64,000 nucleotides of DNA from a virus. A program made the position numbers and the translations under genes. The notes under the pieces were generated by a model that worked only from the letters and a program-made list of their open reading frames with translations, was not told the origin of the DNA and did not search any database. The stretch lies in IMG/VR virus record IMGVR_UViG_3300028920_000055, positions 1-64,000 of that record; one strand, written 5' to 3'. Within the stretch, counting starts at the first letter, position 1. Each line of letters begins with the position of its first letter. Below are positions 16,901 to 58,236 of this stretch, piece after piece.

Positions 16901-17086
16901 GTGAAGATTGCGTGGTGCTTTATTAGTTGGGGTATATCTGTTTTTCTTCTTATAGTGGCGGAGTGTCTTGTAAAAAATGAAGCCGCCAGGGACATTCTTA
17001 CCAAATCTTATATACATCTTGCTGTTTATTACATTGTTGCTACATTAATATACTTTATGTGTTTGGAAGGCGGATATATACAATGA
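16901..17086 (+). CDS. small membrane protein
   Basis: TAAGGAGG RBS, two hydrophobic segments. Confidence 0.55.
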   Translation: MKIAWCFISWGISVFLLIVAECLVKNEAARDILTKSYIHLAVYYIVATLIYFMCLEGGYIQ

Positions 17087-38541: not shown

Positions 38542-38979
38542 ATGAGGGAAAGCGCAATAGCAACTGCCGGAGATGTAATATCCGGGATTGTTGATAGGAT
38601 TGATGCTGAAAAAAAGCATCCGCCCGGATGTCAATGTACAGAGTGCGTTGAAAGTATGTTTACTGGAAACATTGAACGCATCAAAGGCGGTAATGGGGAT
38701 TTGGATGAAAATCAAGAGCTGCTTAAACAAAGCCTTGAAACAGACGAAAAAGAGAGGGAGTTGGCCAATAAAAAGGCAATTGAAGGAGAAGGCAACAATA
38801 AATTGGCCAATTTCTCTCATATTATGAATGTCATTCTTGTCTATTTTACGGCTTCTGGAATTATGATCGCCGGTTTAAGTATGCTCGTAACATTGATTAT
38901 TAATCCAACAATCCAGACCAGTTTAGCTCATGCTGTAACTATGATTGTGTTAGGCATCATCAATGAGAGGATCAAATAA
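38542..38979 (+). CDS. membrane protein upstream of portal
   Basis: HPPGCQCTEC motif, two C-terminal TM helices. Confidence 0.55.
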   Translation: MRESAIATAGDVISGIVDRIDAEKKHPPGCQCTECVESMFTGNIERIKGGNGDLDENQELLKQSLETDEKERELANKKAIEGEGNNKLANFSHIMNVILVYFTASGIMIAGLSMLVTLIINPTIQTSLAHAVTMIVLGIINERIK

Positions 38980-40559: not shown

Positions 40560-40662
40560 AACAACTCTAATAAGTTTGTAAAGTTGTCTTAGCTCTTTTA
40601 AATGTTATAAATTTTAATTATATTATAATCGTTATAAGTTAACTGCTCATAAGGGAACAAGG

Positions 40663-42360: not shown

Positions 42361-42365
42361 TTACA

Positions 42366-43097
42366 ATGCCGAAGCAAAAGATTGCCGGTAAGAAGATCAC
42401 CAAAACAGCAGACGAAGCCATCAACAAGATGCTGGAAAGTATCGCTGATGAGGCTTTGGGAAAGAGTGCCGATGATGGTGACGATGAGGAATATGTCACC
42501 ATGGATCAGTTGGAAGAGTTCGGCAAGGGTCTGCTGAAACAGGTGCTTGATGGAACAAAAGAGAAATTCGATGGTATCGAAAAGACTCTGAAAGCCATCA
42601 AGGACAGCGTGACCGATCAAACCGATGGTGATGAAGAGGATGATGAAGAGGATGAGAAGATCAACAAGAAAGCCAAGAAGTCCAAGTCCAAGGACAAGAA
42701 GGAGCTGAACAAGTCCAAGGATGAAGACGATGAAGATGAGGATGAAGACGAGGATGATGAGGATTGGGATGAAAAGGACAAGTCCTCCAAGAAGATCAAG
42801 AAGTCCAAGGACAAGAACAAGTCCAAGGATGAGGATGATGAGGATGAAGACACAGCTATCGAAAAGGCTGTGGAGAAAGTTCTTACCAAGGCACTTGGAA
42901 AAGGCGTTTCCGGTCGCAAGAGCCATGTCGTTGTCGATGGAAAGTTGGTGAAGTCTGTTGACGGCGAAGTGCCTGAAAATGCTGTAACAATCGATGTTGA
43001 TAACATCGATATGGAAGATTGGAACGCTCTGCCTGAAGAGACGAGGAACAAGATCGTTGCTCGTGAATTCAAAGAGCGAATGTTTGGTTCCAAATAA
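42366..43097 (+). CDS. capsid scaffolding protein
   Basis: Between protease and capsid; D/E and K low-complexity runs. Confidence 0.65.
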   Translation: MPKQKIAGKKITKTADEAINKMLESIADEALGKSADDGDDEEYVTMDQLEEFGKGLLKQVLDGTKEKFDGIEKTLKAIKDSVTDQTDGDEEDDEEDEKINKKAKKSKSKDKKELNKSKDEDDEDEDEDEDDEDWDEKDKSSKKIKKSKDKNKSKDEDDEDEDTAIEKAVEKVLTKALGKGVSGRKSHVVVDGKLVKSVDGEVPENAVTIDVDNIDMEDWNALPEETRNKIVAREFKERMFGSK

Positions 43098-43148
43098 TCT
43101 GGCTGCGGCCAGCACGGATATACTCGAACTGTGATGGAGGATGTAGTC

Positions 43149-44153
43149 ATGCCGAAACTCGGAACTCTGACAGATGCTATTCAGAAGGCATTGACCACAA
43201 CCGCTGGTAGTGGTGGTGACTTTCTGCCAACACCACTCGCGGCCACCTACATCGATCTTGTTCGGGATTTGACGGTTTTCCGTCAAGTGTTTCGTGTGAT
43301 ACCGATGCCCGGAAAGACTTTTGACTTTCCGAAAATTTTGAGTGGGCCGTCTGTGTATTACGAAAGCACAGAGCTTACTCAAGAGGCAATCGAAACCACA
43401 ATGACCACAGGTACAGTCAGGCTAACGGCTCGTAAGTTCATGGCCCAATTGAAAGCGTCTGAGGAAATCTTTGAAGATTCCTCGCAAAACATGGACGCTA
43501 TCATTCGGGAGCATTTTGCCCGCGCCATGGCCGAAGCTGAAGAGGAAACCTGCCTTGTTGGTGACAGAAGCCACACTGCGGCTTCTGGAACCGAAGCCGC
43601 AGCCACTGAAGCCAATTGGTACACTAAAGACCATAGGCTCGCGTGGAATGGAATCCTCACCCTCGCTGGGGACATTGTCGGAACACTTTCTGCCGGAAAC
43701 CGCGCCGCCAATCGTGTTGATTCGTCTGGTGCTGGAATGTCCACTGCCCTCATTCGTCAGCTTCTGTACAATCTCGGAAAGTATGGTCGCCGGATGAGCG
43801 ATATAGTGGTCTTTTGCAACCCCTGGTCGGTTAACCAGCTGTTGGACGATTCGAAACTGGTGACTCTTGACAAGTATGGCCCGAAAGCCACCATTTTCAC
43901 CGGTGAGTTTGGGAAGCTGTACGGAAAGATCACGATGATCAACAGCGATTGGTGTACTGACGGCTATGCCGTTGGTACGCACAAATCTAATGTGGTTCTT
44001 GGTGATCGCCGGAAGATCAAGCTCAAGAGCGAGGAAATGATTGAATACGATGCAAGACGTTTCGTCATTTCCCAGCGTGCCGATATGGCATGTGAACACC
44101 AAGACGCATTGTGCCAAATCCACGACCTGGATCAGCCGAGCACATGGAGTTAA
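43149..44153 (+). CDS. major capsid protein (HK97 fold)
   Basis: GGAGG RBS; ALTT..GSGGDFLP, LTARK, SEE..EDS, GILT. Confidence 0.9.
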   Translation: MPKLGTLTDAIQKALTTTAGSGGDFLPTPLAATYIDLVRDLTVFRQVFRVIPMPGKTFDFPKILSGPSVYYESTELTQEAIETTMTTGTVRLTARKFMAQLKASEEIFEDSSQNMDAIIREHFARAMAEAEEETCLVGDRSHTAASGTEAAATEANWYTKDHRLAWNGILTLAGDIVGTLSAGNRAANRVDSSGAGMSTALIRQLLYNLGKYGRRMSDIVVFCNPWSVNQLLDDSKLVTLDKYGPKATIFTGEFGKLYGKITMINSDWCTDGYAVGTHKSNVVLGDRRKIKLKSEEMIEYDARRFVISQRADMACEHQDALCQIHDLDQPSTWS

Positions 44154-44179
44154 TGTGCTGATGTAGTGATTCTGAAACT

Positions 44180-44213
44180 GATGGGCCTCTGTAAAGGGGC
44201 CCATCTTTCTTTT
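44180..44213 (+). terminator. intrinsic terminator after capsid gene
   Basis: GATGGGCCTCT-gtaa-AGGGGCCCATC-TTTCTTTT. Confidence 0.8.
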
Positions 44214-44230
44214 AACTGTTGAGGAAAGAC

Positions 44231-46471
44231 ATGAACAGACCAGAAGAAGGTGGTTTTATTTCGGGCAGTAAAAACATTATCAATGTAGGCCCGGAAGGAA
44301 AGAAAAAGGCGTATCCATCAGGAATCATTGATACAAAATCATTGGTGGTTCCGAACGAATCTGCTATTGATGGATCTAATATTTCTATTGGACAAGATGA
44401 CACTCATTTTATGATTAAATTGTCCAAAGATTTTCTTGTGTCAGCCAGCAGAGAAGATGTTTTAAATTTAGTAAAAATGGCCTTATCCCCTATGTTTCTC
44501 TCCTTACCAAAAGATGATGCTATTCAAAAAGATATTGATGAAGAAAAGAAAAAACCAATTTCCGGCAAAGGAATTGCTATTTTTATGGACATGTTGTCAC
44601 ATTATACTGGCGGAAGATATAGTGTGGTACATCAAGGGGTGCTGCTCGCAGAAAATTTTGAAGTAACAATCGTAGCCAATCGAGAAATCCCATTTTTAAA
44701 AGATTTTAGGAACTATCCCGGCTATAACAATTTAAAAGTCGTAGTGGATTCTCAGTGGAGAATGAATGAACCTGAAAATCCTTATTTTCTTGTAATTGGA
44801 TTGCCCGTAGACGCTGCCCAATATGCTTATGTTTATTGTCAAAAATGGAAAATTCCTTTTTTCTGCTATATGTTTGAAAGTCCCAATTATGTATCTGAAT
44901 ATCGATCTGGCCCTGATTCTACAGAGGATTTTTGGGCTAATTTTAAAAAAGTGATAGAGAAAGCAGATGTTCGTCTTTCTCCCAGTGAAATAAGCAGTAA
45001 ATATTTACAAGATTGGATCAAATTGTATGATAATAGCTTTCATGTCGTATATCCTTGTATGAATACTCTCGTGGCAGATAAAGCCGCCGAAAGACCAATC
45101 AAAGAATACGATAAAGACCTTGTGTATGTTTCTCGAATGACTTCTTTTAAAAATCCATTGACTATCATTAAAGAGTTAGATCGAAGAAATTACAGCGGAA
45201 CTTTACATATCATTGGAAAGATTTGGCAAGATAATGCTATTCCAGTCGATGCTTTCAAGAATGTTAAGATAAAAATACATGGTCAATTGGATGATTATGA
45301 AAAGTTTCGCATTATTGCTTCTTGCAAAGCATTGATTTTCCCAAGCAAATTCGAAGGTTTTGGTATGCCACCAATGGAGGCACTGTATTTTAATAAACCT
45401 GTAATTTGTTATCGATTGCCTGTATTGGAAGAGGTGTACGGAGACCACCTTGTTTATGTGGACGGAAATTATCGAACTTTTGTATCAAGAGTGTTCGAAG
45501 TATTAAAGAATTATCAATTATACATTCCAAATTGGAAGCCTCCATTTTCTTCTCCGGATGCTTGTAAGAGAAAATTGCTTAATATAATCCCCAAGCGAAA
45601 AATGCAAAAAGTATCTGTAGGAATTTTGGCTTTTAATTGTAATGATTATTTGCCATACGTTATAAAATCTTGTTATGACGAAGTGGATGAAATAGTCATT
45701 TGTGAAGGGCCAGTAAAAGGATTCGAATATGGTGCTACAGAAGAATATCACAGCTCCGATGGTACTTGGGAGTGGCTCACGGATGATACTGGTCTCGGAA
45801 TTGAAGATCCAAAGAATAAAGTTAGAATTATAGCAAGAAATGATAAAAGAGCTTGGTATGATAAAATAGAAATGCAGAACGCTATTGCGGAACGAGTAAC
45901 AGGAGATATTTATATCAAGATGGATTCCGATGAAGTTTGGGATCCAAGAACAATAAGGTCTGTTGTAGAATATATGATTATGAATAAAAATGTAGATATT
46001 ATTCGAATGCCTTTTCTACATTTTTGGACATCTTTTGATAAAGTCGCTGTGGATGCTGGTGGTAAATGGGGAACTTGTCACCCACGAATATGGAGATGGC
46101 GCAGAAGTTTCCGACATCGTAAAACATTTAATGCTTTTCAAGATACTGCTCACGATAATAGAATGGTAGCAGAACCATTCTTTGTTGAGCATACTTGGGA
46201 GGCTGAAGAGGGTGTAATATTTCATTTTGGTTATGCGAGAAAATTATACTATGTGAATCAAAAATTGAGATATTATGCCGGAAGGCAAATAGAAAAAGTT
46301 GTAAAAACTGGTACATACGAGAATTGGAGAACACTTAAAGATTCTACCCAACCTACACAAAATGTTAGAAGTTGGGCTGTCAAATTTAATAAGGAATTGT
46401 TGCCTCCAATAATGAAGGAGCATCCTTATTACGAGATAGACGACATAAGGAAACTGGAAGATGAAGGATAA
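44231..46471 (+). CDS. bifunctional glycosyltransferase (GT4/GT-B + GT2/GT-A)
   Basis: FPSKFEGFGMPPMEA (GT4); second domain with SSDGT and MDSDE. Confidence 0.85.
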   Translation: MNRPEEGGFISGSKNIINVGPEGKKKAYPSGIIDTKSLVVPNESAIDGSNISIGQDDTHFMIKLSKDFLVSASREDVLNLVKMALSPMFLSLPKDDAIQKDIDEEKKKPISGKGIAIFMDMLSHYTGGRYSVVHQGVLLAENFEVTIVANREIPFLKDFRNYPGYNNLKVVVDSQWRMNEPENPYFLVIGLPVDAAQYAYVYCQKWKIPFFCYMFESPNYVSEYRSGPDSTEDFWANFKKVIEKADVRLSPSEISSKYLQDWIKLYDNSFHVVYPCMNTLVADKAAERPIKEYDKDLVYVSRMTSFKNPLTIIKELDRRNYSGTLHIIGKIWQDNAIPVDAFKNVKIKIHGQLDDYEKFRIIASCKALIFPSKFEGFGMPPMEALYFNKPVICYRLPVLEEVYGDHLVYVDGNYRTFVSRVFEVLKNYQLYIPNWKPPFSSPDACKRKLLNIIPKRKMQKVSVGILAFNCNDYLPYVIKSCYDEVDEIVICEGPVKGFEYGATEEYHSSDGTWEWLTDDTGLGIEDPKNKVRIIARNDKRAWYDKIEMQNAIAERVTGDIYIKMDSDEVWDPRTIRSVVEYMIMNKNVDIIRMPFLHFWTSFDKVAVDAGGKWGTCHPRIWRWRRSFRHRKTFNAFQDTAHDNRMVAEPFFVEHTWEAEEGVIFHFGYARKLYYVNQKLRYYAGRQIEKVVKTGTYENWRTLKDSTQPTQNVRSWAVKFNKELLPPIMKEHPYYEIDDIRKLEDEG

Positions 46472-47726
46472 GATATATTACAACGAAATGAAACCGGATG
46501 GCGACAAAAATTTTGTGGATAAAAATGCCGAACCAGTTAAAAGCAAAATTTTTGTTCAAAACGAATGGGTTGTTTCTCCATCTTCTACAAGGGATGTAAT
46601 TGAAAAATTTCAATCTGTTATGATAGGAACAAAAGTAAAAAGTTTGAGACAAGTAATGGAAGAAAATGATAATCCCGATATGCCCTTTCAGGGATGGAGA
46701 GTAAATGTGGTGACTTGGGCGGATGTCGATAGCCGCACATATATGTGTTGGGGAGATTATTGGGTAAAGAAACAAATGGAAAATCATTTAAAGAAAATGG
46801 GATGTGTACTTAATGTTGGTCTTGAAGAAGCTGATGTATCGATATACCTTTTTGGATCCCCTTTTAATTACCGACCTGTTAGACCCTATCAATACAATCC
46901 TCTTTCCTACAATGTAGTTTGGTTTTATAGCCATCCTGACAAGATGAATGTCACAGAATCTGCTAAATACGATTATTTGTTTTGTCTTTCGGAGCCTTAT
47001 ATCGAAAAAATAAAAAAACAACACTTTAATGTACACCCTGAACCACTGCTTTCTTGTACGGATTTTAAACAGCCAGATGTAATTAAATATGGTGAACATC
47101 GAGATATTGTTATGGTCGCTAATGCTCGTGGAGCCGGTGCTCCTTATGGGCGTCAAATTGTAAAATTGTTAACTAACATTAATTTAAAAGGATTGAAAGT
47201 AAGTGTTTGGGGGCATAAATGGAATGATAGTAAGAAATATCATAAATTTCCATCTAAATGGTATAAAGGTCAATATTGGGACTATAATCAGTTGCCGGAG
47301 CTTTATAGAGGGGCCAAAGCTGTTCTTATAGACGGTCACACTGACATGGAACGTGAAGGCTTTGTTCCTATGAAATTGTTTGATATATTCGCTTCTGGTG
47401 GATTACCTATCATACATAAAAATCCCGGTATAAAAAAGATATTTGGTGATTATGTTCTTCAATATCGTGACGAGGAATCTTTACATCAATGCATTACAAT
47501 TCTTTCCAATAAAGAGAAGTGTTTAAGAATCATTAAAAGGGGGCAAAAGATTGCTTTGCAACATACATTTAAAGATCGAGTAAATACTATTATGAATACA
47601 ATACGAGATAATGTAGTAAAATCTGATGCTCTAAGAGGGGATTCGAGAGCAATGATATTTAGAAGTTCGAAGACAAGTACTGTTAAAAGAACAGGCAAAA
47701 TAGAATGGGTAGGAAATGTCGATTAA
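46461..47726 (+). CDS. glycosyltransferase (GT-B, CgeB/Glyco_trans_1_2-like)
   Basis: WGDYW, LPELYR.AK...H.DM...GFV..KLFDI.ASGG, HTF..RV. Confidence 0.8.
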   Translation: MKDKIYYNEMKPDGDKNFVDKNAEPVKSKIFVQNEWVVSPSSTRDVIEKFQSVMIGTKVKSLRQVMEENDNPDMPFQGWRVNVVTWADVDSRTYMCWGDYWVKKQMENHLKKMGCVLNVGLEEADVSIYLFGSPFNYRPVRPYQYNPLSYNVVWFYSHPDKMNVTESAKYDYLFCLSEPYIEKIKKQHFNVHPEPLLSCTDFKQPDVIKYGEHRDIVMVANARGAGAPYGRQIVKLLTNINLKGLKVSVWGHKWNDSKKYHKFPSKWYKGQYWDYNQLPELYRGAKAVLIDGHTDMEREGFVPMKLFDIFASGGLPIIHKNPGIKKIFGDYVLQYRDEESLHQCITILSNKEKCLRIIKRGQKIALQHTFKDRVNTIMNTIRDNVVKSDALRGDSRAMIFRSSKTSTVKRTGKIEWVGNVD

Positions 47727-48465
47727 GCACGTAAAATATGAAGCCTTGATAATCACTTATAACAGATTGAAATATCTAACACAATGTATCGAATCTCTTA
47801 ATAAACAATCTGTTAGAGTGATGATAAATGTGTGGGATAACGGTTCCGCTGATGGAACGAAAAAGTGGATTAAACAAAATATATCCAAATTGAATGGCGG
47901 AGATTTTTTTGATAATGGGAGAAATGTTGGAACAGCAGACGCGAGAAATATTGGTCTTTCGAGACTTCAATCAGATATTGTATTATTAACAGACGATGAT
48001 ATGTGGTATCCAAGAGATTTTATGGAAGCCGCTTATGGAGTGTTCGAAGTAAAAGACGATGCAGGTGTAGTTACCGCCTACAATCCTCATACAGAGGCTC
48101 GATATAAGAAAAAATTTCTTAAAATGAGAACACACGAAGCTGATATATATATGATTGATTTGATACAATCTTGTCCACCTGGATGTTGGGTTTGTGACAG
48201 AGAATTAATATTAAGTTGTGGAGGATTCTTTTTACCCAAAGGAAAGTTAATGGGTTATTCTTCAAGATTTTTGGTAAGAAGCATATATGGCGAGGGAAAG
48301 AAATTTTATGGTATTTATAAATACAAAGGAAAGCCGATGAAAGTGGAGCATATGGATACTCTTAGCAATAAAAGATCACATTTGTTATATTATAAGGATA
48401 TAGGATATGTAGATTTTAGATTGAGACAGAAGTATGGAAGTAAATACAAAAGTAGAAAGAAATGA
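47716..48465 (+). CDS. glycosyltransferase family 2
   Basis: ITYNR, WDNGSADGT, ARN.G, TDDD. Confidence 0.85.
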   Translation: MSIKHVKYEALIITYNRLKYLTQCIESLNKQSVRVMINVWDNGSADGTKKWIKQNISKLNGGDFFDNGRNVGTADARNIGLSRLQSDIVLLTDDDMWYPRDFMEAAYGVFEVKDDAGVVTAYNPHTEARYKKKFLKMRTHEADIYMIDLIQSCPPGCWVCDRELILSCGGFFLPKGKLMGYSSRFLVRSIYGEGKKFYGIYKYKGKPMKVEHMDTLSNKRSHLLYYKDIGYVDFRLRQKYGSKYKSRKK

Positions 48466-48466
48466 T

Positions 48467-49438
48467 ATGAGAATTTTATACGCAGGTACATTTACTGGTT
48501 TTTGGGTTTCAGATCACCATAGAGCAAATTCTTTCAAGAAGTATTTTGATAGAGTTGTTCAATTCGATTATCGCACTGTCGGCAAAGGTGATAATCTAAA
48601 GATGTGTTCTATTTTACACCAATCTATAGGAAGCCTTAATCCTCATGTTTTATTTGTAAACAAAGGTGAACAAATTATACCGAATACTTTACATAGAATT
48701 AAATTGAATTTTCCCAATACCTTTATTGTAGCCTTTAACGGTGATCAAAGGGGAAAGGCTTCAAATATGACCGCAGCATTGGGAAGGGTTGCAGATGGTA
48801 TTCTTATAAACAACCAACACGAGCCTCAATGGAAAGAATATAAAGATATGGGGGTTAGAGCGATATATGAATATCATACAGCTTCTGATCCCTCTGTGTT
48901 TAAACCAATAAGAGGAATCGATAAAAAATTCGATATAGTTTTTGTCGGTGGAAATTATGGAGATAAGTTTCCGCTAAGTAAATTTAGATTAAATTGTATA
49001 AGAGAGTTGGCTAAGGATTTTAAAGTTGCTATTTCCGGCACAACTAATTGGAGAAATGTACCTGGTATTCATTTTCTTGGCCGCAATTATGATGTAAAAT
49101 TTTCAGAAATTGCTGCACAAGCTCGATGTATACTTGGAGTAAATGCTTTCGATAATGTAAATCATTATACAAGCAATCGAACTTGGAATAGTATGGCTTG
49201 TGGAAGGCCATATGTTTGTCATTATTATCAAGGGGCTGAACATTTTTTTGATGATAAGAAAAACATATTGTTTTTTAGGAATATAGATGATTTAAAGCAA
49301 ATTGTAAGTTGGATAAAAGCGAATGAGAAGCAAGCTGACCAGATTGGAGCGGCTGGAAGAAAATTGATTCAAACCCAACATACTTACGATCATAGAACTG
49401 AACAATTATTAAGGATATATGAACAATGGAAAAAATGA
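48467..49438 (+). CDS. glycosyltransferase (CgeB-like GT-B)
   Basis: DIVFVG, YTSNRTW..MACG, IG.AGR......HTY.HR. Confidence 0.8.
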   Translation: MRILYAGTFTGFWVSDHHRANSFKKYFDRVVQFDYRTVGKGDNLKMCSILHQSIGSLNPHVLFVNKGEQIIPNTLHRIKLNFPNTFIVAFNGDQRGKASNMTAALGRVADGILINNQHEPQWKEYKDMGVRAIYEYHTASDPSVFKPIRGIDKKFDIVFVGGNYGDKFPLSKFRLNCIRELAKDFKVAISGTTNWRNVPGIHFLGRNYDVKFSEIAAQARCILGVNAFDNVNHYTSNRTWNSMACGRPYVCHYYQGAEHFFDDKKNILFFRNIDDLKQIVSWIKANEKQADQIGAAGRKLIQTQHTYDHRTEQLLRIYEQWKK

Positions 49439-50163
49439 TTGACTTTTTTGTACTTACTTATAATCGATTAAAATATCTTAACCAGTGTGTTCGATCTGTA
49501 GTAGATCAAACAGTTGATATTAGGATTAATGTGTGGAATAATGGGTCTACAGATGAAACTACCGAATGGTTAATTAACCATTCGGAATTGCTAAATAGGG
49601 GACTACTTTTCAACAGTCCCGTTAATTTGGGAGTTGCAGATGCTCGTAATGTCATGATCGATTTAATAGATGCTAATTGGATATTTATTAGTGATGATGA
49701 TATGTGGTATGATACTAATTGTATGAAGTATAATTGGGAAATGTTACAAGCCTATGAAAATAAGTTTGGAAAATCTAAAATTGGTTTTGTTGGCTTGAAC
49801 ATGCCTTGGAGAAGAAGTAAATATGATGATGAAATATTTATTAAAAAAGTAAATGTTGATAAATTCGAAATACACGAAGTTAGAACAACTCCACCCAATG
49901 CTTGGCTTATTAATAAAAAGGCTCTTTTTAAAATGGGCGGGTTTAAATTGCCGCCAAATCGATTGATGGGATATACAGCTTTTCATTTGCCAAATCAGTT
50001 AAGACAAAATGGTTACAAGGTGATTAGACTCGATAAAGTGAATGGAAAATTATACAACGGTTGCGAACATACTGATAATATAGGTCACGAAAAAGGATTT
50101 AGAGATCATTACGAGGAATACAATGAGTGGAGATCCAAAGAAAAAAGATTGCCCACTGCCTGA
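49426..50163 (+). CDS. glycosyltransferase family 2
   Basis: LTYNR, WNNGSTDET, ARN, SDDD. Confidence 0.85.
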   Translation: MEKMIDFFVLTYNRLKYLNQCVRSVVDQTVDIRINVWNNGSTDETTEWLINHSELLNRGLLFNSPVNLGVADARNVMIDLIDANWIFISDDDMWYDTNCMKYNWEMLQAYENKFGKSKIGFVGLNMPWRRSKYDDEIFIKKVNVDKFEIHEVRTTPPNAWLINKKALFKMGGFKLPPNRLMGYTAFHLPNQLRQNGYKVIRLDKVNGKLYNGCEHTDNIGHEKGFRDHYEEYNEWRSKEKRLPTA

Positions 50164-50842
50164 TGCTGTAGAGTTAAAAAATCTTGCAAAAAGGTATAAA
50201 ACAGATAAAGTCAGGCATGGATTTATACCAATTTATTCCAGTTATTTAAAGTCATTCCGTCAAAAGGCTAAATTTGTAATTGAAATTGGAATAAAATATG
50301 GTGCCTCTTTAAAGATGTGGCACGATTATTTCCCTAAAGCCACTATCGTAGGCATTGATAATATGGTAAAACACGATCCATCTATTTGGGCTAAATCAGA
50401 ATTTGAATCAAGAGTGATTGTTTGGAAAGCAGATCAATCAAATCCAAAAGACTTGAGCCGGTTTATTTATCAATCTCAAGGGATGATGGGAAAGGTTGAT
50501 CTGATTGTTGATGATGGTAGCCACAAGATGTACGATCAACAGCTAACGCTGGCTAAATTGTTTGTAATGCTAAGGCCAGGCGGAATATATGTAATAGAGG
50601 ATTTGGATACATCTTTGGCAGGTGGTCCAAAAAATAAATTTGGGATAATAAAAGATGACCAAGATACCACATTACGTGTACTTGAAAGGGCCAGAATTAA
50701 AAAGAAGATACAAGTTACATCTCGTCACTTGGCTAATTTGGAAGTTAATAGGATTTATCTTTGTAAGCATATTGCTGGTATTGACATTTATCGCTTACAT
50801 GATTGCAGGAATATTATTGCTTTTATTAGGAAAATCAAATGA
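50123..50842 (+). CDS. class I SAM-dependent (sugar O-) methyltransferase
   Basis: TDK..H....Y, IEIGI..GASL.MW.DYFP, DLIVDDGSH, GG.YVIED. Confidence 0.85.
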   Translation: MSGDPKKKDCPLPDAVELKNLAKRYKTDKVRHGFIPIYSSYLKSFRQKAKFVIEIGIKYGASLKMWHDYFPKATIVGIDNMVKHDPSIWAKSEFESRVIVWKADQSNPKDLSRFIYQSQGMMGKVDLIVDDGSHKMYDQQLTLAKLFVMLRPGGIYVIEDLDTSLAGGPKNKFGIIKDDQDTTLRVLERARIKKKIQVTSRHLANLEVNRIYLCKHIAGIDIYRLHDCRNIIAFIRKIK

Positions 50843-51564
50843 ATCTTGAAGAAATTACAACAGCCGTTATTACCTATAACAGACCACTTTGTGTAGGCAA
50901 TTTTTTAAAATCCGCTCGCAAGCATCTTGACGATATGCCAGTGTTGGTAATAGATGGTTCGAGCGAGATAGGTGATGGATGTATTACTTTCGATTCCGCA
51001 ATATTTACACATAATAGACCATTATCAATCAATCTCAATAACGCTATCTTGTTCTCTCGAACAAGATATGTAATGATTTGCAATGACGATATTTATTTCA
51101 AAGATGGAATCATGCCTTTTTTGTTTAAGTTAAACGGGGCAGGATTGCATATCTTGAGCAATTGGAGCTGTTTTGTAATAGATAAAGCAATTATTCCTAC
51201 AGTTGGTTGGTTTGATCCAAGATTAGAGTCAGCAGGATACGATGGGAAAGATTACGGTTCCAGAATGAAAATCTGTGGAATCGAAATGAAAAGGTATGAT
51301 TGTAGAGAGTTTATACATCACGATCAGTATACAAGAAGGAAACATTATAAATCAGTAAGATGGAATTATCGTCAATCTTTTGATTTTTTTAGAAAAAAGT
51401 GGGATGTAGTAAATAGTAAAACTACTGTGAATAGTAAAACTACTGTGAATTTAAAAAAGTTAAGTGGTGCTAAGTTGAAGCAGATGAAGAAAATGGATGA
51501 TCCTGATTGGTATCCTTATTATACAGAATTATACAGGAAAGGTATCTGGTCAGATGAAATCTAA
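50839..51564 (+). CDS. glycosyltransferase family 2
   Basis: ITYNR, VIDGS, CNDD, VGWFD. Confidence 0.75.
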   Translation: MNLEEITTAVITYNRPLCVGNFLKSARKHLDDMPVLVIDGSSEIGDGCITFDSAIFTHNRPLSINLNNAILFSRTRYVMICNDDIYFKDGIMPFLFKLNGAGLHILSNWSCFVIDKAIIPTVGWFDPRLESAGYDGKDYGSRMKICGIEMKRYDCREFIHHDQYTRRKHYKSVRWNYRQSFDFFRKKWDVVNSKTTVNSKTTVNLKKLSGAKLKQMKKMDDPDWYPYYTELYRKGIWSDEI

Positions 51565-52357
51565 TGCAGAACTTACAGTTGCACTGGCCTTGTTCAAGGG
51601 AAAAGAGATTTCCTGGCTTGGTATGGAATCTTTATGTAATCAAGTTACAATTCCTGCTTCTTGGGAATTGCTGATAGCAGAAGAACAGTGCTCTGGAAGA
51701 ACAGGAGCTGATGAAATCTTAAAATATCACAAGCGATTAAGGGAAATTGGTTGTGAAAGAATTGAATATTATCCCCTTACGAAAACTATGGGATTGGTAA
51801 ATAAGTTTGTATTTTTAGCCAGTAACGCTGCAGAGACTTCAAAAATGTTTTTACTTTGGGCACAGGATGATTATTATGTGTCTACAAGGATAAGAGAAAC
51901 TTATGATGCTATGATGTCTTATCCTTATCATATGTATACAAGAGATAACAATTTCGATTATAGTTTTGCAACAGGAAATTTAACTTACAGACATTATAAC
52001 AATAGGATTTTCAGACCTTACATTGAATTGGCTTATCGTCCACACGCTTTAAAAAGAATTATTTTAACAGGCGATGCAAGGCGGAGAAGTCATTCAGATA
52101 TGACTCTGTTTAAATTGTATCAAGAAGTCGTCAAGAAGAAAAAGATTACAAGATTTATAAACACATTGCCCAATAATTCTGTTTATACTACAGGATTTAA
52201 TTATTATAACAAGCCAAGAATTAAAAAATTGAAGCCAAGTAAAATGTTTCAATATACAGAAGCTATATTGGAAGATGTTGTACCTGTAGATATAGCTATG
52301 AGACTTAGAGAATTAAAAAAGGTGTATGATGAAAGAACGCAAAAATATCAACACTGA
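51554..52357 (+). CDS. divergent GT-A-fold glycosyltransferase-like protein
   Basis: LTVAL...WL..ESLC.Q...QDD...RI.ETY; paralog of 4087-4959. Confidence 0.6.
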   Translation: MKSNAELTVALALFKGKEISWLGMESLCNQVTIPASWELLIAEEQCSGRTGADEILKYHKRLREIGCERIEYYPLTKTMGLVNKFVFLASNAAETSKMFLLWAQDDYYVSTRIRETYDAMMSYPYHMYTRDNNFDYSFATGNLTYRHYNNRIFRPYIELAYRPHALKRIILTGDARRRSHSDMTLFKLYQEVVKKKKITRFINTLPNNSVYTTGFNYYNKPRIKKLKPSKMFQYTEAILEDVVPVDIAMRLRELKKVYDERTQKYQH

Positions 52358-52994
52358 AACTTATTGGGACGGAAAGTATTCCAGAAATTATTGGAGTAAT
52401 CCCAATAATTTGGTAAAAGGTGCACACAAGCCTCTTTATGAAAAAGTTGTAGACATAATATTCGAGGTGCGTCATGATTATATTGTGGACTTGGGGGCCG
52501 GAATTGGTCCAGTCCCATTTTTACTATCAAAACGGGGTTTTGATTTTAATAAAAGAATATACATATGCGTGGATCAGTCAACCGTTGGACTTGATAGGGC
52601 TAAAAAATTCAGTCCCTCAGTGAAAGTATTGCCCGCCAAAGTTGATGAGCCTATTACTCAGCTTGAGAAAAGCAAAGCTGATCTTGTAATATGTTGCGAA
52701 GTGCTTGAACATTTAACCAATCCAATAAATGCTTTAAAAAATGCTTATGAACTTGTGAGCGATACAGGATTGGTTGTAGTTTCTGTTCCTCACGGAATAA
52801 GCAAGCATCAAGAACACGTACACTGGAGCATAAGGCAGGATTTGTTGGAGCGTTTTCATGAAGCGGTTGGGCTCAATGTTTATGGGGTTACAATCGCAGA
52901 TCGCTGGCGAGTTGTAAAAAGCAGAAGAATGTGGAGGAAGAAAAATGTCGAGCATCCAACAGTTCAGAAAGCCGATCTTTGTATTTCAGACTAA
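52326..52994 (+). CDS. class I SAM-dependent methyltransferase
   Basis: NT..YWD, VDLGAGIG, DLVICCEVLEHL..P. Confidence 0.85.
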   Translation: MMKERKNINTETYWDGKYSRNYWSNPNNLVKGAHKPLYEKVVDIIFEVRHDYIVDLGAGIGPVPFLLSKRGFDFNKRIYICVDQSTVGLDRAKKFSPSVKVLPAKVDEPITQLEKSKADLVICCEVLEHLTNPINALKNAYELVSDTGLVVVSVPHGISKHQEHVHWSIRQDLLERFHEAVGLNVYGVTIADRWRVVKSRRMWRKKNVEHPTVQKADLCISD

Positions 52995-54135
52995 GATCGA
53001 AAAAGATAAAGTATTGGCTACAATATCTGATTCAATTGATAAAGGTTGGATTGGACTCGGTAAGGTAACTGAAGCGTTCGAGCGAGAATTTGCTGAATAT
53101 GTTGGAGCAAAGTATGCGGTTGGTTTGAATAGTGCCACAGCTGGACTCCATCTTGCTCTTATTTTAGCCGGAGTAAAAAAACACCAGCAGGTTATAACTA
53201 CACCAATGACTTTTGTTTCAACCAATGCTGCTATTCTTTATGTAGACGCGAATCCCTTTTTTGTAGATGTTGGTGAATATTTACATATAAAAATCGATGA
53301 TATACTTAATCCCGAAATAAGTCCAAACAGTGCTAAAGCTATAATGTTAGTACATTTCGGCGGGATTCCTATTGAAAAGAAAAAAATTATACAGCTTCAG
53401 AATAATTGTCCCCATACAGCTATTATACAAGATTGCGCTCATGCTACAGGGGCGAAATTTGAAGATGGATCGATGGTAGGAAGTTTTGGAGATTATAACA
53501 TCTTTTCGTTCCATGCTGTAAAAAATTTACCATCACCTGATGGCGGAATGTTGGTAACTAACGATGCATCTATTGCCGCAGAAGCAAAAAAGTTGAGGTG
53601 GATGGGTATCGATAAAGATACGGCTTCAAGAACGCACCATCTACACAACGTTGGATATAGCTGGTATTATAATGTTGGGAAGCTCGGATATAAATATCAC
53701 ATGAACGATATAACTGCTGCATTTGGATTAGCTGGACTCGATACAATCAATAGAGATAATGACCGGCGCGGAGAAATTCGACAGGCTTATTATGACAAAA
53801 TAGACAAAAATTATGCCAAGTTGGTAATGGCAGATACTAATGTAAAGTCTGCTAATCATATGGCTACATTAATACTAAGACAAGGTATTGATCGAAATAC
53901 TCTTATCCAACGATTGAAAGATAATTGGAATATTCATCCTGGAGTACATTATACTCCAAATAATTATTTTGAGCCGTTTTCTAATTATCCAGGCGGAACT
54001 ATAATGGCTTGGAACGTATATAAACAGATTGTGACTTTGCCTTGTCATCTCGAAATGACCGATGAAGATGTGGCAAGAGTTATAACGGCGGTAAACTCTG
54101 AGATAGATAGAATATTAGAAAAATCACTACAATGA
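52945..54135 (+). CDS. DegT/DnrJ/EryC1/StrS NDP-sugar aminotransferase
   Basis: NSATAGLHLAL, TFVST, DCAHA, FSFHAVKNL...GG, GYKY.M.D. Confidence 0.95.
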   Translation: MSSIQQFRKPIFVFQTKIEKDKVLATISDSIDKGWIGLGKVTEAFEREFAEYVGAKYAVGLNSATAGLHLALILAGVKKHQQVITTPMTFVSTNAAILYVDANPFFVDVGEYLHIKIDDILNPEISPNSAKAIMLVHFGGIPIEKKKIIQLQNNCPHTAIIQDCAHATGAKFEDGSMVGSFGDYNIFSFHAVKNLPSPDGGMLVTNDASIAAEAKKLRWMGIDKDTASRTHHLHNVGYSWYYNVGKLGYKYHMNDITAAFGLAGLDTINRDNDRRGEIRQAYYDKIDKNYAKLVMADTNVKSANHMATLILRQGIDRNTLIQRLKDNWNIHPGVHYTPNNYFEPFSNYPGGTIMAWNVYKQIVTLPCHLEMTDEDVARVITAVNSEIDRILEKSLQ

Positions 54136-54201
54136 AACCAATCATATTTGCTCTCTAAGAGCAAATTACCTTAAATTCATAGTAGGATACAGGAGGAAAA
54201 T

Positions 54202-54489
54202 ATGTCTACAATAAGAGGATTTTCGTTGGTGGAGCCGCCGAAGGCGGAGAGCTTCATAAAATATGTACACCACGGCATTAATATGTGGGTACGTAATGCC
54301 TTGAAAGGAAAGCATCGGTTGGTGTGTTGTTGCTATCATTGTGATAAATTTCATCCAGGCAAGGAGAACAATTGTCCAATAGCTCAAGCTCTTTATGAGT
54401 TTGATGTGGATAATAGTGTAACAACTCCTGTTTGGGAGTGCGAAGGTTTCGAATTTACCGATACGCCTGATGTGGAGGAAACAAAATGA
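54202..54489 (+). CDS. small Cys-rich hypothetical protein
   Basis: AGGAGG RBS; CCCYHC..F.P....NCPIA...PVWEC. Confidence 0.6.
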   Translation: MSTIRGFSLVEPPKAESFIKYVHHGINMWVRNALKGKHRLVCCCYHCDKFHPGKENNCPIAQALYEFDVDNSVTTPVWECEGFEFTDTPDVEETK

Positions 54490-55013
54490 GTAATTGTAAA
54501 TACGACATCGTTCTGGTTCCTGTAAACAAAGATGTAGCTGGAGATTCTCAGTTTATTTACAACGTCAGGAACCATCCGGCCATCCGGAAAAATCTCATCA
54601 ACGAAAGTGAAATTCCAATCTCGAAACACAATCAGTATTGGAGTAAACTCATTCTCTCCAATGACGTTGTGCTCTATAAAATCGAAATGATGGATCCGAT
54701 TACTCATCAATTCATCTCGGTTGGATATTGTGATACTAAAGTAATCGGTGATGAGATGGAATTCGGTTGGAAGATTTTACCGGATTATCAAGGTCTTGGA
54801 CTTGGCCGGAAAGCCGTTGAAGCTCTGCTCAACGCCAATGAAGGCTATATTCAGATCAAAGGCTTAACACCATCTTTGACAGTATTCGATGATAATTTTC
54901 CAGCCATTAAGTTATATCAATCTTTTGGTTTTGAAACAGTAGATCAAAAGAAATTGAAGAGACTTGATGGTACAATTCGTGTCCTTTTGAAGATGAAACT
55001 CACCTCTAATTAG
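54486..55013 (+). CDS. GNAT N-acetyltransferase (PseH-like)
   Basis: IY.VRN.P.IR, YQGLGLG, V..DN.PA.KLY...GF. Confidence 0.8.
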   Translation: MSNCKYDIVLVPVNKDVAGDSQFIYNVRNHPAIRKNLINESEIPISKHNQYWSKLILSNDVVLYKIEMMDPITHQFISVGYCDTKVIGDEMEFGWKILPDYQGLGLGRKAVEALLNANEGYIQIKGLTPSLTVFDDNFPAIKLYQSFGFETVDQKKLKRLDGTIRVLLKMKLTSN

Positions 55014-55091
55014 AAAAGGATATTGGATATAATATAGTAAATTTGTAAAATATTTATTATATTATTCTTAGAGTAAACTTGAGGAACAAAA

Positions 55092-55784
55092 ATGGCAACT
55101 GGAGAATTAACAGCTTCTTATATCGATTGGGAAGATGCTTGTTATATGGTCGGGGCCGATCCTACGGCCATAGACAATATTAAGGATCCAATCATTCAAT
55201 GGGTTGAAACGCTCGGTATTGAGTTGGAGCTTGGAAGAGACATCTCTACGGCATTTCAGGAAAATACTGTTAGCTCAAGTGATCCAGAGCTTCACAGTAT
55301 TGAGCGCGATGATCAGGATACCCTTATAGCCAAGCATTTTCCTATCATAAGTGTAACTCGCCTGCGAGATAATATTCAAGCAAGCAATTCCAACAACATA
55401 TTAACTCTAACGGAACATACTAATTTCGAGATCGAAAAAGAAACTGGACTCATAAGGCTCACAGGCGAGTTACAAGACAGCAACCTGATGAAGAAAATCG
55501 AGTTCTTCACACAGGGTTATAATACAGTGGATCTGTGTTACGTGTGGGGATTTACTTCAATTCCAAACGATGTAAAGGCTTTCGCTAATTTGATGGCTGC
55601 TGCTTTGTTGAGACAATACGATAAAATGGTAGCCAGTGGAGAATCTGCTGGATTGAAGCGATTACAGATGGGCGATTATGAAGAAGAAGTGGGAGATATG
55701 TACAAGAACGCACAGAACGAGTTTATGGCATCTGTAAAGTTGTCTTCATATCGGTTAAAGAGTAAATACGGAAATTATGTTTGA
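55092..55784 (+). CDS. head-tail adaptor/connector (gp6-like)
   Basis: Position; FPIISV, G.I, Y.WGF..IP.DVK. Confidence 0.65.
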   Translation: MATGELTASYIDWEDACYMVGADPTAIDNIKDPIIQWVETLGIELELGRDISTAFQENTVSSSDPELHSIERDDQDTLIAKHFPIISVTRLRDNIQASNSNNILTLTEHTNFEIEKETGLIRLTGELQDSNLMKKIEFFTQGYNTVDLCYVWGFTSIPNDVKAFANLMAAALLRQYDKMVASGESAGLKRLQMGDYEEEVGDMYKNAQNEFMASVKLSSYRLKSKYGNYV

Positions 55785-56143
55785 TGTCGATAGATGAATC
55801 AAAACTGCCTCAATCGGTGACTATATCTGAACCATCATCTTCACTCGATGCTTATGGTAATCCAGATGGAACGCTGGCTGTTATTAATTCGAGCGTTCCT
55901 TGTCGGATAACAAGAAATAAACATTACAATGCAGAAGCGGGAAGTGAAGCGGGATTTTTGAGTCGATCAACGCATTTGATTTTTATGAATCATACTTATA
56001 ACAGCATTACTAATACTGTAAAGACTGGTTTTCAAATATCTACTGGATCTGACATCTATATAGTTCAATTTGTAGACGATGCTCCCGGTGGAGTTGAAGA
56101 TCATCATCAACAAATATATTGTACTAAGCAGGTAAAAGATTAA
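55784..56143 (+). CDS. head closure protein
   Basis: Position; DAYGNP, V.CR, HH.QI. Confidence 0.6.
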   Translation: MSIDESKLPQSVTISEPSSSLDAYGNPDGTLAVINSSVPCRITRNKHYNAEAGSEAGFLSRSTHLIFMNHTYNSITNTVKTGFQISTGSDIYIVQFVDDAPGGVEDHHQQIYCTKQVKD

Positions 56144-56721
56144 TGCCAAGACCAGTAAGGATAACAGGAGCAAAAGGGCGGAGAGCCACTGGGGCATTGG
56201 TAAAAGCTCCTGGTCGAGCACCTGCGGCTTTCAGAGGAAAGAAACTTACACCTCCGAAAATACAAATAGTTGTACACGGAGCGAAACAAGCAGAAAAAGT
56301 TTTTAAATTAATCAATAAAGCCTCTAAATCCTGGACACAAAAAGGTGTAGAGGCGACCCTGAAGATGTTCCTTAAACAAGCTCAAGCGAATGTACTTTCT
56401 AATCCTCAATTAAGAGCTTATGACAAGGGCAATCTTTACAAGGATTTAAAGTATAAAATTGAAGTTGTAAAAGATGGATTTGTACAAGGTTCTGCTGGAA
56501 ACTGGGGTGAACAAGCAACGGGCGGTACAAATCCAGCTTATGTGACTTATCATATATATGTACACGAAGGCACAAGAAAAATGCCTAAAAGACCTTATCT
56601 ACATTATGCCTATTTATGGAAAGTAAATCTTGCAATAAAACATCTGGAGAAAAGCATTCAAAAGGATGCTATCGAAGGATCAGCACCAAGAATTGGAATA
56701 GCGAATAGGCTCGCAAGATGA
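56143..56721 (+). CDS. neck protein (HK97 gp10-like)
   Basis: D.GNL...Y..YVHEGTRKMPKRPYL. Confidence 0.75.
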   Translation: MPRPVRITGAKGRRATGALVKAPGRAPAAFRGKKLTPPKIQIVVHGAKQAEKVFKLINKASKSWTQKGVEATLKMFLKQAQANVLSNPQLRAYDKGNLYKDLKYKIEVVKDGFVQGSAGNWGEQATGGTNPAYVTYHIYVHEGTRKMPKRPYLHYAYLWKVNLAIKHLEKSIQKDAIEGSAPRIGIANRLAR

Positions 56722-57185
56722 GTGTATCATACGATTTAGAATTAGTCAAAGCGATTAAGGCTTTATTTGTTGCCGATAATGTTGATCCAGACGCATCAAA
56801 TAATGAGCTATGTATACACTCATTTGTTGCTGATAGAATCGTCCAAGGTGATGTGCCGCTTCAAGATGTCGATCTGCCGCAAATTTCTATATCTGTTACA
56901 GTTGGACCAGGTGTAGAAGAAGGTTTACCGGCAGAGCACGCAATGATGGACATCAAAGCTTGGTATCCACGTACCACTGCTGGTGCTTCTTTATCTGTTT
57001 CAAGATGCGGAGCAAGAATAAGAGGATTGTTGGATCACAAGCCTCAAGTGGTTTTTCAATACAATTCTGCTTTGCATTGCTATTTACTTGATCGGATAGA
57101 TGGAAGTAAGTACTTGGGTGAGGAAGAAGAGTGTTACGTGTACCAAAATCTCTTTGATGTCGTCATGGAAAGGTCATTCTCTTAA
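56718..57185 (+). CDS. tail terminator protein
   Basis: Position; V.DRI..G..P.....P.I. Confidence 0.6.
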   Translation: MSVSYDLELVKAIKALFVADNVDPDASNNELCIHSFVADRIVQGDVPLQDVDLPQISISVTVGPGVEEGLPAEHAMMDIKAWYPRTTAGASLSVSRCGARIRGLLDHKPQVVFQYNSALHCYLLDRIDGSKYLGEEEECYVYQNLFDVVMERSFS

Positions 57186-57206
57186 TCATGATCATAGGAG
57201 AATAAC

Positions 57207-57662
57207 ATGTCAGTCCAATTCGGATTGGCCATCATGCGCTTGGATTCTGTGACTCTGGGTTATATGCAGGGTGTGTCGCTCGATTTTAATTTCGAGCAAG
57301 CACTGTTGTATAGCGGGTCTCAGATTTTCCCTGTAGACGTTCGAGTTCACACTGGAAGCATTGCTGGTAATGCTGAATTTGCGGATTTGAACGCCTTGGG
57401 AATTCACAAGCTAATTGGCGGCACAAGATCCAGCTATGGCGTTATCACTCTGACATCCACTTCATATCCCGGCACGTGGGAATGTTTGTTACACATGACC
57501 ACGGATAACAAGACGTTCCGTATCGTGTTGGAGAAATGCAGGAGTACCAAGTTGAGTTTCGCTTGGGCAAGGGATGCTCACATTATTCCCAACTTCGATT
57601 TTCAAGCGTTCGATGATGGCTCCGGTAACATTGGAACCATCACGCTTGAGGATGTTTCGTGA
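57207..57662 (+). CDS. major tail (tube) protein
   Basis: Position before chaperone and TMP, beta-rich, no sheath gene present. Confidence 0.65.
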   Translation: MSVQFGLAIMRLDSVTLGYMQGVSLDFNFEQALLYSGSQIFPVDVRVHTGSIAGNAEFADLNALGIHKLIGGTRSSYGVITLTSTSYPGTWECLLHMTTDNKTFRIVLEKCRSTKLSFAWARDAHIIPNFDFQAFDDGSGNIGTITLEDVS

Positions 57663-57678
57663 TGATTGCCTCCTGCTA

Positions 57679-57742
57679 AGGTGAGGATGGGCGATGAAGC
57701 TCGGTTAATGGTCTGGCCTTGTGGATTCGCCCATCTTATTTT
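57679..57742 (+). terminator. stem-loop after tail tube gene
   Basis: GAGGATGGGCGA...TCGCCCATCTTATTTT. Confidence 0.55.
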
Positions 57743-57777
57743 ATCTCGTCAAATCAGACCACGTTGAGAGGGACATT

Positions 57778-58236
57778 ATGTTAAAGAAAGATGATTTTGA
57801 AGAGTTGGAAGCCATTGTTGGCGAAACCAAAAAAGTCAAAGTAAGAGGGAAAATTTGGAAGATCACGGCATGTCCACTGTCTGATATTCCGACATTACAG
57901 AAATTGATCCGGCAATTTGAAAGTCTCAACAATGAAGAAGTCATTATGGAAAGGGGACGTGTTCTAATGGCGGAAATCATTTGGCATGGTATAAAAGAGG
58001 AACACTCCAAGGAAGTTGAGAAAGAAAAGGTAATGGATCATTTCACATTAGGAGCTTTTCCAGTAATTCTTAACATTATGCTGGATCTGAATGATTTTTT
58101 ATCAGGCATGCGGGAAGTGAGGAATCTGGGCCAAGCCGGAGCGAATCTCGCCGCTCCAAGCGGAAGTTTGGAATCAATGTTGCCGATGGAAAAATCAAGG
58201 GCCAACCGTGGCGCGAACTCAAAGAAGAAGAAATAA
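57778..58236 (+). CDS. tail assembly chaperone (gpG-like)
   Basis: Position before TMP; slippery T-TTT-TTA at 58095-58101. Confidence 0.7.
   Translation: MLKKDDFEELEAIVGETKKVKVRGKIWKITACPLSDIPTLQKLIRQFESLNNEEVIMERGRVLMAEIIWHGIKEEHSKEVEKEKVMDHFTLGAFPVILNIMLDLNDFLSGMREVRNLGQAGANLAAPSGSLESMLPMEKSRANRGANSKKKK

Follow-up and report, generated by a model that had tools for sequence, protein, structure and literature searches.

A putative virion-glycosylation island behind the capsid gene in a lineage of uncultured marine-sediment phages

We analysed a window of 64,000 nucleotides, the first 64 kb of a 90,051-bp IMG/VR virus record (IMGVR_UViG_3300028920_000055; CheckV completeness 92%) that comes from a marine-sediment metagenome and in which every gene lies on the + strand. 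Directly after the major capsid gene, at positions 44231-55013, stand twelve open reading frames (ORFs; here g1 to g12, all on the + strand) that encode glycosyltransferases (GTs) and sugar-modifying enzymes, and we consider it reasonably probable that this island is a phage-encoded cytoplasmic O-glycosylation system that acts late and on the phage's own virion proteins. A virion-protein acceptor is favoured because the position of the island, its co-inheritance with the capsid gene and the families of its enzymes all fit it. A first-pass annotation of this DNA had already proposed a late, virion-directed glycan; the position of the island, the linkage of g1 to the capsid gene and the co-divergence of these two genes strengthen that proposal. 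Which protein accepts the glycan, that expression is late, what the sugar is and in which order the steps follow are inferences on our part.

RESULTS

A glycosyltransferase gene follows the capsid gene throughout the lineage

Relatives of the phage were collected by two IMG/VR searches seeded with the capsid protein and with g1, and the 25 that carry at least ~0.7 kb of DNA downstream of the capsid gene were counted. In every one of them (25/25) a g1 homologue of ~700-785 aa is found shortly 3′ of the capsid gene, in some after one to three short ORFs (114-227 aa), and the seven contigs that have no g1 stop <1 kb past the capsid gene. Identity to the window phage is 41-78% for the capsid protein and 25-48% for g1, and complete genomes of ~90 kb with terminal repeats are among these relatives. 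A synteny search for glycosyltransferase genes behind the capsid gene had been suggested with the first-pass annotation, and the arrangement does recur. Moreover, capsid and g1 identities, taken for all pairs among 13 genomes, correlated with a Mantel r of 0.82, a value that no permutation out of 5000 attained (0/5000); therefore both genes have been inherited together as far back as the lineage can be traced. On sequence comparison, the island is a trait of the lineage, neither a one-off nor a misassembly.

The remainder of the island varies in size from g1 only (relatives L015, L016, L017 and L021) to the twelve genes of the window, and in the most distant relatives g1 stands on its own and is followed by small ORFs without assignment. 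L058, which at 78% capsid identity is the closest relative found whose island is sequenced in full, has seven genes, namely g1, g2, one GT2 gene, g4, a g9-type methyltransferase, a DegT gene and a GNAT gene. One of the complete genomes carries a cupin, three CgeB-like and two GT2 genes, and in another relative a CmcI-like methyltransferase gene accompanies two CgeB-like ones. Homologues of g2 occur in L004, L007, L010, L012 and L058, and g4 homologues were also found in relatives. The twelve-gene island is hence an expanded version, with an extra GT2 copy, a MycE-like methyltransferase, two divergent GT-A genes and g11 added. Loci that build exposed glycans such as O-antigen or capsule have a conserved core and a variable periphery, and by analogy the core-plus-variable-periphery layout of the island resembles such surface-glycan loci. 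In the complete relative G002 (contig L010), the capsid gene and g1 are separated by a gene at 8629-9147 for a cupin protein (PF07883, 7e-11). This protein could act as an epimerase or keto-isomerase on sugars and, if so, would point to host-derived nucleoside-diphosphate (NDP)-4-keto-6-deoxyhexoses as the precursors used in the lineage.

The core enzyme g1 fuses two glycosyltransferases

The g1 gene (44231..46471) encodes a fusion of a GT4 domain (PF00534, 2e-14) and a GT2 domain (PF00535, 1e-5). We agree with the earlier reading of its start, an ATG at 44231 with GAGGAAAG just before it, and prefer this to the TTG at 44219 that a mechanical ORF call would give. In the AlphaFold2 (AF2) model, which has a predicted local distance difference test (pLDDT) value of 86, a GT-B fold spans residues 112-455 and a GT-A fold residues 460-746. 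The chain opens with ~48 disordered residues that form an N-terminal leader, and a small domain, the retaining GT-B half and the GT-A half follow in this order. Foldseek matched the model to MshA, BshA and PglA at 1e-11 to 8e-15, all generic GT4 relatives. The motifs E375-x7-E383 and D565-x-D567 are invariant in 40 homologues, and with its GT-B fold and E-x7-E motif the N-terminal half has the features of the retaining GT4 family in CAZy.

Two side observations concern this protein. The catalytic parts of g1 and g2 are unrelated, and the two proteins begin with a common disordered leader of ~40 residues (encoded at 44231-44370 and 46461-46590) that holds a motif in two parts, KN[IFL][IVL][DN] and then SK-h-h-V-x-N. 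Of 42 g1 homologues, roughly half carry the first part at the N-terminus and most of the rest a looser form of it; the motif is also seen in ORFs that begin at 9851 and 13131 of L010, 9845 of L012 and 2838 of L058, and its first part stands at the C-terminus of a g4 homologue in L010 (3′ end of 15675-16970). A terminal KN-h-h motif was counted in 9 of 68 island ORFs as compared with 4 of 194 other ORFs, counts that are not independent of each other. The shared leader may serve as a peptide by which these proteins dock onto one and the same partner. In addition, one g1 homologue (P0012, 43% identity) is labelled by NCBI as a glycosyltransferase of a 'Candidatus Hodarchaeales archaeon' metagenome-assembled genome (MAG), on an 18-kb contig. 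Because the phage has a bacterial-type DnaG and an NlpC/P60 lysin, we judge this contig to be probably a phage contig mis-binned into an Asgard MAG.

The other island genes encode soluble glycosyltransferases and sugar-tailoring enzymes

The genes of the island are tightly packed, with 10 of the 11 junctions overlapping by 4-68 nt and a sole gap of 66 nt between g10 and g11, which bears out the description of twelve mostly coupled genes inserted between the capsid gene and the head-tail connector. That gap (54136-54201) contains an 8-bp inverted repeat, TTTGCTCT-CTA-AGAGCAAA. A further gap, at 55014-55091, precedes the connector gene; its AT content is very high, and a promoter may lie there.

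Eight GT domains were counted in the island. Behind g1, two CgeB-like GT-B glycosyltransferases are encoded by g2 (46461..47726; PF13524, 5e-16) and g4 (48434..49438; PF13524, 2e-24), and no NCBIfam equivalog was found for either of them. The genes g3 (47716..48465; PF00535, 5e-21) and g5 (49426..50163; PF00535, 3e-16) encode GT2 enzymes with DDD motifs at residues 93 and 90, respectively, which are paralogues of 31% identity. Two further enzymes are more divergent. The g7 protein (50839..51564) is GT2-like with a sub-threshold assignment, scoring 22.7 bits with PF00535 against a Pfam cut-off of 23.3, and it matches the glycosyltransferase family phrog_2456 at 5e-5. The g8 protein (51554..52357), with a QDD motif, gave no match in Pfam, PHROG or NCBIfam, and its assignment as a divergent glycosyltransferase of GT-A fold comes from the ESM Atlas, where it reached a feature score of 0.98 and a structure TM of 0.76 to viral GT2 clusters. 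Its start is probably Met20 of the mechanical ORF that opens at 51497. PDB sequence searches with g4 and with g8 returned nothing meaningful.

The tailoring enzymes include two S-adenosylmethionine (SAM) methyltransferases. One, g6 (50123..50842; PF13578 and PF04989, Methyltransf_24/CmcI-like), is a MycE/TylE-like deoxysugar O-methyltransferase whose closest solved structures are TylE and MycE (PDB 8ia9, 1e-18, and 3ssm, 1e-16) and which matches phrog_21658 at 1e-24; the other, g9 (52326..52994; PF13489, PF08241), is a class I enzyme with a DLGAGIG motif. A DegT-family sugar C4-aminotransferase dependent on pyridoxal phosphate (PLP) is encoded by g10 (52945..54135; PF01041, 1e-81). Its match covers profile positions 4-359 of 360 and the PLP lysine K193 lies in SFHAVK, so that it carries both the full-length family match and the catalytic lysine that characterize the DegT/DnrJ/EryC1 family; it also matched NCBIfam PseC with 266 bits (cut-off 423) and, in the PDB, ArnB at 7e-47. 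The last gene, g12 (54486..55013; PF13508, PF00583), encodes a GNAT N-acetyltransferase with the acetyl-CoA motif QGLGLG, and its best NCBIfam match is PseH at 42.5 bits versus a cut-off of 93. The catalytic motifs are intact throughout (E-x7-E and D-x-D in g1, DDD in g3 and g5, SFHAVK in g10, QGLGLG in g12), as are the glycine-rich SAM loops of g6 and g9. No transmembrane segment was detected in any of the twelve proteins, with a top 19-residue hydropathy of 1.56, and all twelve are soluble.

The small Cys-rich protein g11 (54202..54489; 95 aa, 6 Cys) matched no family in our searches and falls only into unnamed viral clusters of the ESM Atlas. It was rejected as a member of the pathway because its family is unnamed and confined to phages and because the island of the closest relative, L058, lacks it; it may be a passenger gene.

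The enzyme inventory of the first-pass annotation therefore holds in most parts. Pfam confirms the GT4-GT2 fusion and both CgeB-like enzymes, the two methyltransferases are upheld by Pfam, g6 also by PDB and PHROG, the DegT enzyme and the Cys-rich ORF are as described, and the divergent GT-A enzyme finds its support in ESM Atlas features and structure alone. Two entries are qualified: among the three GT2 enzymes listed, g3 and g5 are clear and g7 falls just under the Pfam cut-off, and for the acetyltransferase called PseH-like, the GNAT assignment stands, and the PseH and PseC names lie below the equivalog thresholds.

No dehydratase/epimerase (PF01370) or nucleotidyltransferase (PF00483) was found in the 90,051-bp record, which extends to the whole record what had been remarked for the window, and NeuB/PseI synthase (PF03102) is likewise without a match in the record. 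With neither a PseB-type dehydratase nor NeuB/PseI, the phage alone therefore cannot make a nonulosonic acid. The best matches of g10 (PseC or ArnB) and g12 (PseH) all remain below equivalog level.

Capsid and probable tail-tube proteins end in an invariant serine

The capsid protein has a Ser/Thr-rich C-terminus that ends in ...PSTWS in this phage, and the last residue is Ser in 13 of 13 lineage members (endings PSTWS, PSTAS, PSSTS, PGSGS and PSAS). The probable tail tube protein carries a C-terminal D-x-S in all seven sequences (7/7), and the C-termini of the portal, g1, g4, the connector and the adaptor are variable. The invariant C-terminal Ser of the two structural proteins is suggestive of an acceptor. 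Mucin-like Ser/Thr tracts were found nowhere in the genome, the maximum Ser+Thr fraction over 25 residues being 0.48, reached in a short reading frame that precedes the terminase gene.

A hairpin separates the capsid gene from the island

An 11-bp GC-rich hairpin followed by a T-run lies at 44180..44205 on the + strand, 27 nt past the capsid stop codon. A similar hairpin, with a minimum free energy of -15 or lower, is present past the capsid gene in 12 of 13 relatives, as compared with 5% of random windows of this genome. The element at 44180..44205 probably acts as a terminator or attenuator, setting the high expression of the capsid gene apart from that of the enzyme genes.

Flanking modules and other features of the record

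As the first-pass annotation had read them, and as profile searches confirm, head genes and the capsid gene lie upstream of the island and connector and tail genes downstream. The upstream flank consists, on the + strand, of the portal gene (38979-40559), a fusion of ChaB with a prohead protease (40663-42360), an acidic scaffold gene and the gene for the HK97-fold major capsid protein (43131..44153; PF05065, 4e-19). In the protease, the ChaB domain (PF06150, 6e-13) is fused at the N-terminus and the S78 match is weak; the protease part is found in the relatives, and the ChaB part was matched in only some of them. Past the island, also on the + strand, the first head-completion or connector gene is a 230-aa ORF (55092..55784) that is conserved in relatives and matched no family in our searches. 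It is followed by the head-tail adaptor (55781..56143; phrog_793, 5e-6), a Neck1/tail-completion gene (phrog_5) and the probable tail tube gene (57207..57662), which is assigned by gene order and a weak profile match to 9fkb (E = 0.021); with the single tail-tube sequence, a PDB search gave nothing meaningful. Beyond the tail tube come chaperones and then a tape measure of 1377 aa.

Two genes outside the island deserve mention. Just upstream of the terminase region, a 1010-aa protein (30919-33951) has a C-terminal 'Phage depolymerase C-terminal' domain (PF25692, 1.6e-5), and its product is probably a capsule- or EPS-degrading tail spike (EPS, exopolysaccharide) encoded outside the tail module. 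A lone GT2 gene (26540-27292; PF00535, 1e-18) lies far from the island among small non-structural genes and is a candidate for acting on some other target, for example DNA or the host; the relative G001 has a similar lone GT2 at 5414-5749.

The stretch is contained in marine-sediment DNA runs alone, and no RNA runs are listed. Among cultured phages, megablast with positions 40000-58000 gave no match, tblastn with the capsid protein and with g1 gave only partial matches of 26-33% identity, and a close cultured relative was not found in INPHARED. No tyrosine integrase was found in the 90-kb record; serine recombinases were not searched for.

DISCUSSION

Comparison with known glycosylation systems

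Mycobacteriophages Che8 (gp110 and neighbours), Corndog (gp35-38) and Myrna have virion proteins that are O-glycosylated by phage-encoded glycosyltransferases, as we propose here. In Corndog, a methyltransferase and three GT genes lie within the head module beside the capsid gene, much like the island, and in our phage, as in the Corndog and Che8 type of system, soluble phage glycosyltransferases and methyltransferases adjoin the structural module. Two papers (PMC12619734 and PMC12363180, citing Freeman et al. 2023, Cell Host Microbe) place the mycobacteriophage glycans at the C-termini of the capsid and tail-tube subunits, and in our lineage the capsid protein and the probable tail tube protein end in an invariant Ser. 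The two systems also differ in several respects. With 12 genes and 8 GT domains, the island is three to four times larger than the 3-4 genes of Corndog; it lies downstream of the capsid gene, whereas the Corndog cassette lies upstream; it has additional amino-sugar tailoring by DegT and GNAT enzymes and a second methyltransferase; and its core enzyme is a GT4-GT2 fusion universal in an uncultured marine-sediment lineage, unlike the Corndog type. With Corndog gp34-39 and gp41 as BLASTP queries, no island protein was matched at better than E = 0.18; Che8 proteins were not tested.

In its enzyme content the island is reminiscent of the R132-L143 cluster of Mimivirus, a 12-gene cluster for fibril glycans that varies between clades and in which R132 is proposed to 2-O-methylate N-acetyl-viosamine (PMC10117803). 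Both have a DegT-type aminotransferase (L136), an N-acetyltransferase (L142), a MycE-like methyltransferase (R132) and several glycosyltransferases, and they are of about the same size. By description, the g6 protein belongs to the same enzyme class as R132. Mimivirus, however, has its own 4,6-dehydratase (R141), which this phage lacks, and its cluster lies away from the capsid gene, in a virus with a eukaryotic host and fibril proteins as acceptors. A bacterial precedent for the CgeB-like enzymes is CgeB of Bacillus subtilis, the namesake of PF13524, which glycosylates Thr112 of CgeA, a self-assembling hexameric spore-crust protein (PMC13577073). CgeB works from the cytoplasmic side on a protein shell, a task like the decoration of capsomers, and g2 and g4 belong to its family; the bacterial system differs in consisting of a single transferase with a dedicated acceptor, and the phage proteins match it at the domain level only. 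The bacterial Pse enzymes, among which PseC and PseH are the best NCBIfam matches of g10 and g12, feed the cytoplasmic O-glycosylation of flagellin. A pseudaminic-acid pathway is not apparent here, as the PseC and PseH scores are sub-equivalog and the record has no match to PF01370 or PF03102; the family searches did not extend to PseG and PseF.

A model for glycosylation of the virion

We suggest that the island would be transcribed together with the late head genes and that the hairpin past the capsid gene would yield abundant capsid message while part of the transcripts read through into the enzyme genes. The g1 protein would then prime the glycan on a virion protein and carry out its first extension. 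The likeliest acceptor would be the Ser/Thr-rich C-terminal tail of the capsid protein, possibly joined by the C-terminal Ser of the tail tube, and g2-g5, g7 and g8 would lengthen or branch the chain. From an NDP-4-keto sugar supplied by the host, g10 and g12 would make the donor of a 4-acetamido-deoxy sugar, and methyl caps would be added by the MycE-like g6 and by g9. A more specific version, which we offer tentatively and regard as possible but rather doubtful, covers the whole lineage of ~90-kb marine-sediment siphoviruses: the GT4-GT2 enzyme would O-glycosylate C-terminal Ser tails of both capsid and tail tube, the leader of g1 and g2 would dock the enzymes onto the particle during its assembly, and accessory genes would diversify the glycan, in this phage into a methylated 4-acetamido-deoxyhexose oligosaccharide built by a Mimivirus-like logic.

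Several points weigh against a virion acceptor. The island has no sequence similarity to the Corndog glycosyltransferases, although in function it would be closest to mycobacteriophage virion glycosylation. There could be a structural reason for the conservation of the C-terminal Ser. The assignment of the tail tube is weak, its AF2 model (7 sequences) reaching a pLDDT of 34 and the PDB profile match being the marginal one given above. An acceptor cannot be read from a GT fold, and the Foldseek relatives of g1 are of the generic kind. Soluble GT4 and GT2 enzymes also act on membrane lipid-linked acceptors, and the absence of transmembrane segments is thus compatible with an envelope target. 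Finally, the hairpin could terminate transcription fully, in which case the island would need a separate promoter.

Other explanations of the island

The alternative to be taken most seriously, which we nevertheless consider unlikely, is that the island builds or remodels a glycan of the host envelope (a capsule, an O-antigen or a teichoic-acid-like polymer) on a lipid carrier, with the priming transferase, flippase and ligase supplied by the host; this could serve to mask receptors and so keep progeny from being trapped on cell debris, or to shut other phages out. In NCBIfam, the GT2 and GT4 domains match best, though weakly, to EPS, teichuronic-acid and Pgl enzymes, g3 has a weak match to the GtrB-like phrog_841, peripheral GT4 and GT2 enzymes can work without a transmembrane segment, and the depolymerase-type tail protein at 30919-33951 implies that the host is probably encapsulated. 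The island, however, has no priming phosphoglycosyl transferase, flippase, polymerase or membrane protein. Envelope-conversion modules of the gtrABC type are usually found near attachment or immunity regions. Here neither the membrane components nor the temperate lifestyle of Gtr-type O-antigen modification modules is seen, and since no tyrosine integrase was found there is no setting for lysogenic conversion. Nor would one expect an envelope function to sit inside the operon of the late head genes, with g1 strictly co-inherited with the capsid gene across a deep divergence. This linkage of g1 to the capsid gene itself in all relatives also argues against a glycan placed on a minor virion component (such as a tail-fibre, cement, decoration, portal or neck protein) with the major capsid protein left bare, a variant that we rate as quite improbable. 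In its favour, the neck genes adjoin the island, in some relatives an additional ORF of ~200 aa separates g1 from the capsid gene, and the island region of L017 contains a weak 'phage cement protein' match; the island of this window, though, offers no decoration-protein candidate, and the genome lacks mucin-like Ser/Thr tracts.

That the transferases instead glycosylate a modified base in the phage DNA, as protection against restriction, seems very improbable to us. The phage DNA-sugar clusters described so far lie next to a gene for 5mYOX or ThyS and attach mono-, di- or trisaccharides (Pyle et al., bioRxiv 10.1101/2023.12.21.572611), and the same work gives this explanation some weight in that phage DNA-glycosylating GT-A and GT-B enzymes resemble those for lipopolysaccharide and teichoic acid and sometimes lie near structural genes, a likeness that the island shares. 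In addition, an atypical 326-aa ThyX, a class-III aminotransferase and a deoxynucleoside monophosphate kinase are encoded together at 85728-88560 of the record. This ThyX module, however, is ~31 kb from the island, and ThyA was not found in the genome. ThyX is present in the relatives G003 and G005 and absent from the complete relative G002; because G002 retains g1 and a large island without it, the island is uncoupled from the ThyX module. No 5mYOX or ThyS enzyme was seen adjacent to the island, and its glycosyltransferases are not clustered with a 5-methylpyrimidine dioxygenase or a ThyS-like hydroxymethylase, as they are in DNA sugar hypermodification. A Tet_JBP family search, which gave no match here, is uninformative because control genomes gave no signal with it either. 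Eight GT domains with amino-sugar and methyl tailoring go far beyond the DNA glycans described in bioRxiv 10.1101/2023.12.21.572611, and the lone GT2 at 26540-27292, among non-structural genes, would be a better candidate for such a task. We regard it as a negligible possibility that assembly has joined phage DNA to an EPS locus of a bacterium. The GC content of the island, 0.33-0.37, is below the 0.45-0.48 of the neighbouring capsid gene, but equally low GC is found elsewhere in this genome, the genes overlap throughout the island, and the stretch is contained in two separate marine-sediment runs, although both may stem from the sample of origin. Misassembly with a host EPS locus, which the first-pass annotation had named as one of the outcomes that would overturn its reading, is ruled out because the same layout is common to at least 25 independent viral contigs from different metagenomes, some with terminal repeats.

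Implications of virion glycosylation

So far, phage enzymes have been shown to glycosylate the virion only in a small number of mycobacteriophages, whose cassettes comprise two to four genes, and in a literature search we did not find glycosyltransferase islands at the capsid-connector junction described as a common phenomenon. What is novel here is a much larger cassette that is anchored to the capsid gene throughout a deep uncultured lineage, with an enzyme set (an aminotransferase, an acetyltransferase, a MycE-like methyltransferase and many glycosyltransferases) that parallels the one for giant-virus fibril glycans. If glycosylation of virion proteins is the function of the island, complex and strain-variable 'glycocalyx' coats would be common in environmental phages beyond the mycobacteriophages, and sugar coats of phages would be widespread in sediments and differ among close relatives as bacterial O-antigens do. 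Such coats would bear on adsorption, on persistence, on sticking to particles or mucus and on recognition by grazers and immune systems.

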